Virus record (IMG/VR): IMGVR_UViG_2778261569_000015
Location: 1-4,714 of that record
Strand: one strand, 5' to 3'
DNA: 4,714 nucleotides
Source of the DNA: a virus
Lineage: Duplodnaviria; Heunggongvirae; Uroviricota; Caudoviricetes
The number at the start of each line of letters is the position of its first letter. Within the stretch, counting starts at the first letter, position 1. Both the position numbers and the translations under genes were made by a program. Shown in pieces: positions 1,831-4,087 of this stretch. Under the pieces are notes generated by a model. It worked only from the letters and a program-made list of their open reading frames with translations. It ran no database searches and was not told the origin of the DNA.

Positions 1831-2019
1831 TTATCCAGCCGGTATTTCGTTATTCAGGTACAGCGATACTTTGTTTAACGGGAGACATTCACCGGAAATT
1901 TTTTGCTCGTCTCTTGCCTGATGGCAGGATTCTTTACTGGCATAAATTCCGGTAATCACATTCTGTGGCTCACCTGTTATAAGAAAAACCGTCATCATCA
2001 GTGCAAACGCTGAACTCAC
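1831..2019 (-). CDS. ydfD: YdfD-like small lysis protein (62 aa)
   Basis: GTG start at 2019-2017 overlaps the dicB stop (GTGA). The product MSSAFALMMTVFLITGEPQ...EQKISGECLPLNKV...EIPAG resembles my recollection of E. coli Qin YdfD in length, hydrophobic N-terminus and EIPAG end, and it sits in the same position immediately after dicB. Confidence 0.6.
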   Translation of the reverse strand: MSSAFALMMTVFLITGEPQNVITGIYASKESCHQARDEQKISGECLPLNKVSLYLNNEIPAG

Positions 2020-2204
2020 TGCTGCCCTCCGAAAATGCCAAGTTCAAGAAGGGCAATTCTGGAGAGTATGGAATTATCATTGAGAAGATAAGGCTCATAT
2101 TTTCTCATCCTGATGGCGTCTTCAGTAAACTCCCGGTTACTGAGCAGAATACCAATATTAAAACACCCTTCAGACGTATTAACGTTTGGTAGTGACGTTT
2201 CCAT
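2016..2204 (-). CDS. dicB: DicB-family cell division inhibitor (62 aa)
   Basis: Internal start of the 97-aa track ORF: ATG at 2204-2202 with SD GAGGA 7 nt upstream (TTGTTGAGGACGCGATA-ATG). The N-terminal half METSLPNVNTSEGCFNIGILLSNREFTEDAI closely matches recalled K-12 DicB (METLLPNVNTSEGCFEIGVTISNPVFTEDAI); the C-terminal half is divergent. Confidence 0.85.
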   Translation of the reverse strand: METSLPNVNTSEGCFNIGILLSNREFTEDAIRMRKYEPYLLNDNSILSRIALLELGIFGGQQ

Positions 2205-2373
2205 TATCGCGTCCTCAACAATGAATTTTGTGATGCGGTGCCTGGTGCCTCCAGGTGACGTTAACCAGTTAACAATTAACGCCGGATACAGAGAATCCAC
2301 CCATAACACTGTTTTTGGTTTTAACTGTTCCGCGTGCGCTGAGCCGCATTCACCGCATCACAAAATTCACTTT

Positions 2374-2431
2374 AAAAAGGGCGGCAGAGCAGCCACGGAG
2401 TAAAACTGATACCGCCAAACGTCACCAGAAA
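2374..2431 (-). ncRNA. dicF: DicF small regulatory RNA
   Basis: Minus strand reads TTTCTGGTGACGTTTGGCGGTATCAGTTTTACTCCGTGGCTGCTCTGCCGCCCTTTTT, nearly identical to the recalled E. coli DicF sequence, including the 3' GC-rich stem and U-run. It lies between the upstream ORFs and dicB as in Qin. Confidence 0.8.
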
Positions 2432-2767
2432 ACTGATAACAGAGGGCGTTGCAGTGGGGTTGTCACTTAAGCGTATGGTCAACCTGACAACCCGGCGTCC
2501 TCAAGGGGGAACAGAATAACCCCGCCACACTTACCGCCGCGCCATTTCGCGGATTGCCACAACCGGAAGCGCACGGTCGAACTAAATTTAACGACACCGT
2601 ACAGAGAGACCAATTTCGCCGTGCGCTTTCGTGTTATGCCCTGACTTTTCAGGGAAAGAGCCTTTCAGTAAACTGTCAGTACCGGATTCTTATCCGTGTC
2701 CGGCGCACGACCACACGTGACAGCGTGTTGGTCTCCATTTTTAACCCAGCCCTTAATGGAGGATAAA

Positions 2768-3073
2768 ATGCACTCTAAATCAATCAATCGATATTATGTC
2801 CATGTGCAGTTATTTGAAGCAACAATGGAACAGGAGAAAAAGTTCGAGACTCTGATGCCAAATTTTAAATACTCCAGGATGATTAATGAAGGTGACATTG
2901 AATATAAATTATTGCCAGGGGCATACGTTATTCAGTCAACGCTTAATGCGAATCAAATACTTGAACAAACCTTTTCTATTGCTAATTCAGTTGGTGCTAA
3001 TGCTCACATTTTTGTTTGCCCTTATGATGAAAGTGCAACCCTTTTGCCTTGTGCTGATTTTAGCACTTACTAA
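2768..3073 (+). CDS. Hypothetical protein (101 aa), low-GC gene antisense to the operon
   Basis: ATG at 2768 preceded by a strong SD GGAGG (2758-2762, 5-nt spacing). The track ORF 2696-3073 is trimmed to this start. A sampled stretch is about one-third G+C, against roughly half in flanking genes. The 3' end overlaps the convergent ORF 3060-3365 by 14 bp. No recognisable motif or TM segment. Confidence 0.6.
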   Translation: MHSKSINRYYVHVQLFEATMEQEKKFETLMPNFKYSRMINEGDIEYKLLPGAYVIQSTLNANQILEQTFSIANSVGANAHIFVCPYDESATLLPCADFSTY

Positions 3074-3365
3074 CTAAATTTAATTTATGTTCAAGTTCGG
3101 CTATTTGCATACGTAGTGCTTTAACCATTGTTTCATGATAAATCTCACTCACTCCACCTGGGTGTGGGGTGAATTTAGGTGAATCATCTTTGTTTTCAGA
3201 ACTCAGATTCTCTTCGTACAGCTTAATAAAGGAATTACGCACATTATGGGATATATTGTCGATGGTTTCTTTTTCTACGGTACTCAGGTCAAGAGTCGCC
3301 AGTTGGGAACGAACTATATTCGCTGCCATTTCCTGGAATTGCATTGGTAAATCTTTAAATTCCAT
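3060..3365 (-). CDS. Hypothetical protein (101 aa) in the pL-like operon, AT-rich, C-terminal predicted helix
   Basis: Preferred start is ATG 3365-3363 with SD GAGGT 5 nt upstream; the track start at 3377 lacks an SD. It follows the ydfA-like gene with an 11-nt gap. Product begins MEFKDLPMQFQEMAANIVRSQ. Whether it corresponds to ydfB/ydfC of Qin cannot be judged from memory. Confidence 0.6.
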   Translation of the reverse strand: MEFKDLPMQFQEMAANIVRSQLATLDLSTVEKETIDNISHNVRNSFIKLYEENLSSENKDDSPKFTPHPGGVSEIYHETMVKALRMQIAELEHKLNLVSKC

Positions 3366-3376
3366 CGTCAACCTCA

Positions 3377-3529
3377 TCAGTCAGTGTTTCTGGCTAACCA
3401 GCGACGCGCGCCAGCTTCAGTTTTAAACGTTTTGCTTCTGGTATACGTCATCGCGGTAAACGTGCCGTCCAGGTTGGGGAATACTCCGTATACCAGAGAT
3501 TCGTTGTTGCCAAGATTGAGCGTATCCAT
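3377..3529 (-). CDS. ydfA: YdfA-like small protein (DUF1391-type, 50 aa)
   Basis: Internal start of the 82-aa track ORF: ATG 3529-3527 with SD GAGGT 4 nt upstream. Product MDTLNLGNNESLVYGVFPNLDGTFTAMTYTRSKTFKTEAGARRWLARNTD matches my recollection of Qin YdfA and is the first gene after the repressor, as in Qin. Confidence 0.65.
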   Translation of the reverse strand: MDTLNLGNNESLVYGVFPNLDGTFTAMTYTRSKTFKTEAGARRWLARNTD

Positions 3530-3600
3530 GTTGACCTCATTTGCCCTTAACGCCGGGGGGGCGGAACTAAGACCTGTCGCACCGTTGTGCTTTGATGGGA

Positions 3601-3640
3601 TATATTGTTCTCTTAAGATGAACATATGTCAACATTGTGA
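3601..3640 (-). promoter_or_regulatory. pL-like promoter with operator palindrome, driving the ydfA-dicF-dicB operon
   Basis: Minus strand has TTGACA (3632-3627), a 17-nt spacer, then AACAAT (3609-3604). An inverted repeat TGTTC-N9-GAACA (3606-3624) overlaps the spacer and -10. The segment is about 80% identical to the pR-like element at 4126-4165 in inverted orientation. Confidence 0.5.
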
Positions 3641-3697: not shown

Positions 3698-4087
3698 TTA
3701 TTTTTGTCGCGTTATTGGGTCAACGTATTCTGAGTAAAATTCGGTCAGTTTTTGAAGGCGCATTTGAAAAGCTGCCAGCATATTTCTACGCTCTACAGGT
3801 GGCAGGTTTCTGTAAACATCAAGCAGGGCTTTCTCATCATCATCAAGCGCCTCTCTGTTTGTATCTTCTTTTCCTGTCAGTAGCCAGGAAAGGGAAACAT
3901 TTGTCGCTTCTGCAATTTTGGCTGCGGAATCTTTACTGATTGTCCCTCTTTTTTTCCAGGCGTTGACTGATGAGCGTCCTACACCAGCGATGCGCGCTAA
4001 ATCTGAACCGCTTAAATGATGCTGTTGCGAGATCGTATCTAACCTTTCTGCCAGCGGGGTGTCGTATTGCTTTTTTCTCATGTCCAT
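3698..4087 (-). CDS. cI/DicA-like phage repressor, XRE-family HTH (129 aa)
   Basis: HTH segment LSGSDLARIAGVGRSSVNAWKK near the N-terminus, with a C-terminal helical region (ALLDVYRNLPPVERRNMLAAFQMRLQKL) arranged like DicA. Divergent from a Cro-like gene and followed by its own terminator. No SD; a -10 hexamer abuts the ATG. Confidence 0.85.
   Translation of the reverse strand: MDMRKKQYDTPLAERLDTISQQHHLSGSDLARIAGVGRSSVNAWKKRGTISKDSAAKIAEATNVSLSWLLTGKEDTNREALDDDEKALLDVYRNLPPVERRNMLAAFQMRLQKLTEFYSEYVDPITRQK

Follow-up and report, generated by a model that had tools for sequence, protein, structure and literature searches.

An untranslated leader of the small RNA DicF in a lambdoid prophage, and a three-hairpin core that also occurs apart from DicF

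In Escherichia coli K-12, a 190-nt and a 53-nt species of the small RNA DicF both accumulate in stationary phase (PMC10448788, Ragunathan et al. 2023), results that confirm those of Faubladier et al. 1990. The 190-nt species is lost in the absence of RNase III and builds up once RNase E is inactivated, while the 53-nt species requires RNase E; primer extension and Northern blots revealed no promoter within the operon, and the predominant transcript stops at the DicF terminator, with read-through appearing only upon inactivation of RNase E (PMC10448788). DicF is comparable to CpxQ, SroC and MicL, small RNAs that RNase E frees by cutting a longer mRNA 5' of a terminator hairpin (PMC9438474); for MicL, upstream stem-loops are reported to guide the precise processing. 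DicF goes beyond these three in having an RNase III step at what appears to be a dedicated long hairpin, together with an unusually long, sequence-invariant structured leader.

The put RNAs of phage HK022 are cis-acting antiterminator stem-loops downstream of early promoters. We take their likeness to the DicF leader to be positional only, both being structured RNAs close to the beginning of an early lambdoid operon, just before terminators. The leader has three hairpins whereas put has two, and, unlike in put antitermination, the DicF terminator is efficient in K-12 (PMC10448788).

The operon and the extent of the leader

The window, by which we mean the whole 4714-base stretch analyzed here, is 100% identical to prophage DNA in several E. 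coli O157:H7 genomes and carries a dicBF-type early operon on its minus strand (Table 1), which also has a ydfD-like gene and an exonuclease gene. DicF matches Rfam RF00039 at 2379-2430 on the minus strand (75 bits, E 7e-16, gathering score 48), its 53-nt extent being taken from the K-12 annotation, and a terminator-like site lies at its 3' end, at 2396-2381. Despite the 75-bit Rfam score, the RefSeq annotation of O157:H7 NZ_CP038428.1 (1513705-1520505) has no DicF ncRNA at the equivalent of 2379-2431.

Table 1. Features of the window discussed in the text (positions as in the window)
Feature	Positions	Strand	Basis or remark
dicB	2016-2204	-	
DicF small RNA, 53 nt, with intrinsic terminator	2379-2431	-	Rfam RF00039 and K-12 annotation
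Putative RNase E cleavage site (UCAGU↓UUUCUGG)	2431/2432	-	homology with K-12 dicF annotation
Leader segment of 137 nt, retained in the 190-nt DicF precursor	2432-2568	-	190-nt count back
Hairpin 3, 9-bp inverted repeat with 19-nt loop	2457-2493	-	inverted-repeat search, folding
Hairpin 2	2493-2536	-	outer helix CGGU/GCCG, 2533-2536 with 2493-2496; inner G-run/C-run, 2520-2523 with 2507-2510
Hairpin 1, CCGCG-AAAUGG-CGCGG, 5 bp	2537-2552	-	read from sequence
Long irregular hairpin, ~22 bp, 91 nt	2553-2643	-	putative RNase III substrate
Distal 'type A' leader, shared with K-12	2641-2708	-	alignment
Cassette-specific sequence	2709-2767	.	no K-12 homology; upstream region of plus-strand ORF 2768-3073
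101-aa ORF	3060-3365	-	
DUF1391/YdfA-like gene	3377-3625	-	
DicA-like repressor gene	3698-4087		dicBF-type operon

Upstream of DicF, the preliminary description had marked about 340 nt as a GC-rich, untranslated spacer. The interval 2432-2767 indeed has no annotated gene in the identical O157:H7 genomes, and GC content is 0.51-0.57 across 2375-2750 vs. 0.35-0.37 in the adjoining cassette, but only 2432-2708 is leader, the remainder (2709-2767) being cassette. The alignment with the Qin ydfC-dicF sequence that had been proposed as a check bears this out: homology to the ydfC-dicF intergenic leader of K-12 prophage Qin (positions 2604-2882 of our K-12 locus, L002) begins at ~2708 and continues to DicF, the proximal 170 nt being almost identical. 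The two leaders are alike in having a long hairpin at the RNase III position, three small hairpins, a U-rich RNase E site and a terminator. They differ in the upstream partner, which is ydfC in K-12 and an AT-rich cassette of two convergent ORFs in the window, in the apical part of the RNase III hairpin, and in a few substitutions, e.g., an A at 2455 of the window that weakens the closing helix. We consider it very probable that 2432-2708 (minus strand) is the conserved untranslated dicF leader of a lambdoid prophage dicBF operon, cut by RNase III and then by RNase E; the spacer as it was stated is thus an already described element and ordinary.

Window positions 2709-3376 replace K-12 ydfB, ydfC and the first ~60 nt of the K-12 leader, with homology resuming at the 3' end of the ydfA-like gene. 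Since K-12 homology ends at ~2708 and the cassette replaces ydfB-ydfC, positions 2709-2767 (59 nt) are part of the cassette; they include a GGAGG at 2758-2762 and a 7-bp inverted repeat (2733-2739/2755-2761) that covers this ribosome-binding site. Cassette exchange between prophages therefore stops at a defined point (~2708) and leaves the processing module intact. The AT-rich ORF bordering the spacer (2768-3073) is on the plus strand and not in operon orientation.

Several observations concern the cassette itself. Its 35-37% GC sequence (2709-3376) encodes two convergent 101-aa ORFs, 2768-3073 (plus) and 3060-3365 (minus), which overlap by 14 nt; the plus-strand one runs antisense to the transcript of the operon. 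ORF 2768-3073 belongs to phrog_8894 (E 1.5e-35); the other ORF belongs to phrog_6937 and phrog_1363, all three being phage families with function unassigned, and searches of the two ORFs with Pfam and PADLOC gave no matches. The minus-strand ORF matched YdfC at E 1.1 and did not match YdfB. The sole plus-strand promoter match (2741-2769) overlaps the ATG of the plus-strand ORF, so that it is unable to serve that ORF and was rejected.

Two further readings of the spacer had been raised, that it is the decayed remnant of a ydfC-type gene or that dicF-dicB has a promoter of its own within it. In K-12 Qin the same untranslated stretch, ~340 nt long, separates an intact ydfC from dicF, so the spacer is not a ydfC remnant; it aligns with this intergenic DNA rather than with ydfC, and the neighboring 101-aa ORF is without similarity to YdfB or YdfC. 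A small translated ORF is a related possibility: the statement that no minus-strand ORF exceeds about 20 codons holds for ATG starts, but GTG/TTG ORFs of 36-44 codons are present at 2463-2597, 2479-2613, 2665-2787 and 2372-2482, and some phage records mark a 'hypothetical protein' over the homologous stretch. Against translation, these frames lack an ATG start and shift via 1-nt indels in a C-run among near-identical copies, and across 96 homologous sequences we found no conserved coding frame, the 'peptides' being of 70 distinct kinds. We therefore give a decayed gene or a translated ORF almost no credence. An internal promoter is favored by one older study suggesting a promoter upstream of dicB (cited in PMC10448788), yet a scan of the minus strand from 2150 to 3150, crude enough to miss weak or non-sigma-70 promoters, returned no sigma-70-like site, the 5' end of the 190-nt species is lost without RNase III in K-12, and the K-12 primer extension and Northern blot results are negative (PMC10448788), all of which makes such a promoter highly improbable. 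No Rfam 15 covariance model matched inside 2432-2767 at E values up to 1.

Putative processing sites and the course of processing

RNA structure prediction, which had also been proposed as a check, singles out the 91-nt hairpin at 2553-2643 (MFE -34.4 kcal/mol, z -3.45, matched by 0 of 200 shuffles). At its core is a 13-nt repeat (2564-2576/2619-2631), the longest inverted repeat of the region, which is missing from the preliminary description. No other hairpin of the region is predicted to be exceptionally stable. Measured from the 3' end of DicF (2379), a length of 190 nt reaches to 2568, in the 3' arm of this hairpin (GCGC↓UUCCGG), where the cut may be a few nt off given that '190 nt' is a gel estimate. 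By homology with K-12 we infer that the 2553-2643 hairpin is the RNase III substrate and is cut at ~2568. Among prophages the hairpin tip (~2585-2612) is hypervariable, occurring in at least 6 unrelated versions of 18-25 nt above a stem that hardly varies.

The two stems named in the preliminary description had been offered as possible processing or attenuation structures. [quoted passage not shown] The sequence of the putative RNase E site, UCAGU↓UUUCUGG, agrees with the motif of that enzyme, RN↓WUU, and the consensus fold derived from 83 loci places the site within the loop of a predicted weak hairpin, UGUUAUCA/UGGUGACG (2424-2445). The distal part of the leader, 2641-2708, is predicted to fold into a hairpin of three parts at 2641-2679 and into a CCGGA/UCCGG stem whose loop varies, and in other DicF loci it is replaced by an unrelated 'type B' sequence.

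These elements suggest the following course. The operon transcript would start at a DicA-repressed promoter upstream of the ydfA-like gene and traverse the leader. RNase III would cut the 2553-2643 hairpin near 2568, the precise position in the window being a putative one, and yield a 190-nt RNA made up of the 137-nt three-hairpin leader, DicF and the terminator; RNase E would then cut the U-rich single-stranded stretch at 2431/2432 to give 53-nt DicF. The three hairpins, including the 9-bp stem, may fold into a scaffold that shields the intermediate and leaves the RNase E site, ~25 nt downstream, accessible, and pairing of UGUUAUCA with UGGUGACG may mask part of the DicF 5' seed until the RNase E cut. 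It is in K-12 that the dependence on both nucleases, the two RNA species and the lack of an internal promoter were observed; by homology they should carry over to the O157:H7 prophage.

Conservation and structure of the three-hairpin segment

A DicF pattern scan of IMG/VR and species-representative genomes gave 105 distinct loci; pattern matches outside Escherichia/Shigella were mostly chance, and L124-L130 and L134 were left out. The hairpin stem, leader and DicF are kept at every locus (83-105 distinct), while genes 300-400 nt upstream vary widely and at least two unrelated sequence types are found upstream of the long hairpin. Mean pairwise identity among the 105 loci is 0.91-0.997 from 2585 through DicF to the dicB start, a plateau that may partly reflect linkage and recent spread, the loci having been ascertained through a 21-nt DicF pattern; it is 0.65-0.8 inside dicB and 0.4-0.7 upstream of 2640. 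The leader is at least as conserved as DicF, and more so than dicB.

The spacer between dicF and dicB is itself mostly 0.95-0.99 identical among the 105 loci (one 25-nt stretch, 0.88), which exceeds the conservation of dicB. This spacer and the start of dicB (2172-2381, minus strand) match Rfam STnc100 below threshold (37.4 bits against a gathering score of 47, E 1e-5), and similar sub-threshold matches occur in phiSTEC1589 (L138 1410-1617), P1 (L140 2842-2961) and P7 (L141 2910-3025).

Within the 137-nt segment, the inverted repeat previously given as 8 bp exists but has 9-bp arms, GGGTTGTCA/TGACAACCC, at 2457-2465 and 2485-2493 with 19 nt between them; by our own estimate, ~0.1 perfect 9-bp inverted repeats within 80 nt are expected per 340 random bases, so that such a repeat is not improbable by chance. 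The small CGCG-N6-CGCG stem is also present, as a 5-bp CCGCG-N6-CGCGG (2537-2541/2548-2552). Neither stem is stabler than shuffled sequence (z -0.79 and -0.05), nor is the 137-nt leader as a whole (z +0.64). RNAalifold of the 83 close DicF loci found compensatory changes at 0 of 63 pairs; stem substitutions there are mostly wobble-compatible, with 24 G-U cells vs. 6 broken cells. The 83 loci are too similar to one another to test structure, and diverse homologues were therefore sought.

Eighteen diverse copies were scored against a hand-set structure, in which, for the lambdoid copies, a long-range helix (2556-2563 with 2448-2455) closes the set of three hairpins. With the structure derived from the same 18 sequences on which it was scored, 93.4% of cells pair vs. 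36-54% in slid controls, 7 pairs have changes on both sides vs. 0-3 in slid controls, and the covariation score lies above all 500 shuffles. Hairpin 3 shows a double change from U-A to C-G in the P1/P7 clade, while the same 5'-arm change is uncompensated in three lambdoid lineages. Double changes in hairpin 2 affect the outer helix (U-A to C-G in P7) and the inner helix (G-C to U-A in P1, G-C to A-U in the lambdoid contig L184). Hairpin 1 shows no covariation and is 97.8% paired in the 18 copies. Covariation support for the three-hairpin structure is modest, coming from few independent events. The leader loops are conserved as much as the stems, so that structure alone fails to explain the conservation; the loop of hairpin 3 in particular, CAGGUUGACCAUACGCUUAAG (GGUUGACCAUACGC), is almost invariant, P1/P7 included.

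Two motif-based readings of the segment were rejected. The sequence GGCGGTAAG resembles the RfaH ops sequence, GGCGGTAG, but differs at G8; P7 has GGCGGCAAG, whose T-to-C change covaries with the RNA pairing partner. A lambda/P22 boxB-like reading of CCCUGAAAAGUCAGGG and of hairpin 1, judged by inspection, fails in that the stem is not kept in K-12, the loop is unlike boxB, and no N-type gene was recognized among the scanned ORFs.

The three-hairpin domain in other phages and its possible roles

In the cdtI and Stx2c phages the three-hairpin domain is present at 88.7% identity with a terminator directly after it and without the DicF seed. A long hairpin of different sequence occupies the same upstream position in cdtI (z -2.05), where a strong PL-like promoter lies ~290 nt upstream. 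In two lambdoid IMG/VR contigs, L184 (7169-7406) and L167 (4248-4485), the RNase III 3' arm and the leader are followed by other seed/terminator units. The converse arrangement is seen in phiSTEC1589-Stx1c, in which a DicF-type long hairpin leads directly into a DicF-like RNA without the three-hairpin domain. P1 and P7 have the domain at 74-81% identity over ~95 nt, ~40 nt downstream of the C1-controlled Pban promoter and followed by its own terminator. In both the window and the P1/P7 'dicF-like region', the domain and an intrinsic terminator stand where an early operon under repressor control begins. Unlike the window, the P1/P7 region has no DicF seed (by Rfam) and no long upstream hairpin, the latter because the promoter is only ~40 nt away; it also has a different closing helix and a different terminator, and it leads into tRNA genes and the ban operon instead of dicB. 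Rfam searches with the domain of cdtI, Stx2c, P1 and P7 gave no family match. The independent distribution of the three-hairpin core, absent from Rfam and from the literature examined, appears to be new here.

Some details of these loci deserve mention. The sRNA-like seeds of L184 and L167 are unlike DicF (e.g., ...CCCAUGUUGAUUACC... and ...CCAUGUUGAGUAUUGACC...) and are followed by DicF-like terminators. Predicted pairing of the alternative seeds with the ftsZ 5' region (RNAduplex) was uninformative and was set aside, genuine DicF itself giving z 0.01 vs. shuffles. The DicF-like RNA of phiSTEC1589-Stx1c (L138, 1370-1420) is divergent and scores 35.6 bits, under the gathering score; a Kil-type septation inhibitor (phrog_294) is encoded at 1585-1824 in place of DicB, and its label in the record, 'cell division protein FtsZ', looks like a mis-annotation. 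The ban-operon leader of P1 (68739-68892; L140 1501-1654) and of P7 (L141) comprises the domain homologue and an intrinsic terminator (GCCCAUCUUCGGGUGGGCGUUUUUU), and the P1 record flags only part of the domain, as a 'dicF-like region' (NC_005856 68791-68892).

Two roles beyond that of a processing leader can be considered for the domain. One is cis-acting termination control, with the leader as an attenuator or a put-like antiterminator that sets passage past the DicF terminator into dicB. Wherever the domain was found, an intrinsic terminator directly follows it close to where a repressor-controlled early operon begins, some read-through is required by the position of dicB beyond the DicF terminator, and in one MFE fold the upstream GGCGGUAAG... 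is paired to the terminator's 3' half. Yet the 83-locus consensus fold lacks that alternative pairing, a cognate factor is not apparent, and the terminated transcript predominates in K-12, where read-through is confined to RNase E inactivation (PMC10448788). Nor is there sequence similarity to the HK022 immunity region holding putL: a blastn comparison (word size 7) with HK022 22000-33500 yielded no match above chance level, and the Northern blots from K-12 speak against strong antitermination (PMC10448788). Termination control is accordingly an unlikely role for the leader.

The other reading is that the leader at ~2448-2563 is an autonomous RNA domain of ~150-190-nt early-operon phage RNAs with interchangeable 3' seed/terminator units, the 190-nt 'precursor' being itself functional. 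This would be compatible with a processing leader, the two not being mutually exclusive, and we regard it as possible though not probable. The domain stands without the DicF seed in the cdtI and Stx2c phages, precedes two other seed/terminator units in L184 and L167, and has a copy near Pban in P1/P7; a DicF-like RNA without the domain is found in phiSTEC1589, the hairpin-3 loop is invariant across all contexts, and the 190-nt and 53-nt species accumulate together in K-12 stationary phase (PMC10448788). On the other hand, the long form is without a known function, a matching Rfam family is absent, the independent events behind the covariation are few, and mosaic phages, by recombining, would yield the same modular distribution for a purely cis-acting processing element. 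A more specific form of the autonomous-domain reading, which we put forward tentatively and judge somewhat unlikely, is that the ~115-nt core (2448-2563) is an uncurated autonomous phage RNA module serving as the 5' body of ~150-190-nt RNAs in lambdoid and P1-like early operons, with DicF as one of several 3' units and the hairpin-3 loop binding a host RNA or protein. The 5' end of such a module would be freed by a dedicated long RNase III hairpin (of variable sequence, as in cdtI) or set by a nearby promoter (as in P1).

For annotation, these results mean that the stretch should be labeled as a dicF leader/precursor with RNase III and RNase E sites, and not as a spacer or pseudogene. Work on DicF has so far centered on the 53-nt form, and the leader travels apart from the DicF seed, in cdtI/Stx2c, in P1/P7 and ahead of alternative seeds. 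Should the long form or its 5' domain prove active, the interpretation of DicF-type regulators in EHEC and other E. coli would change.
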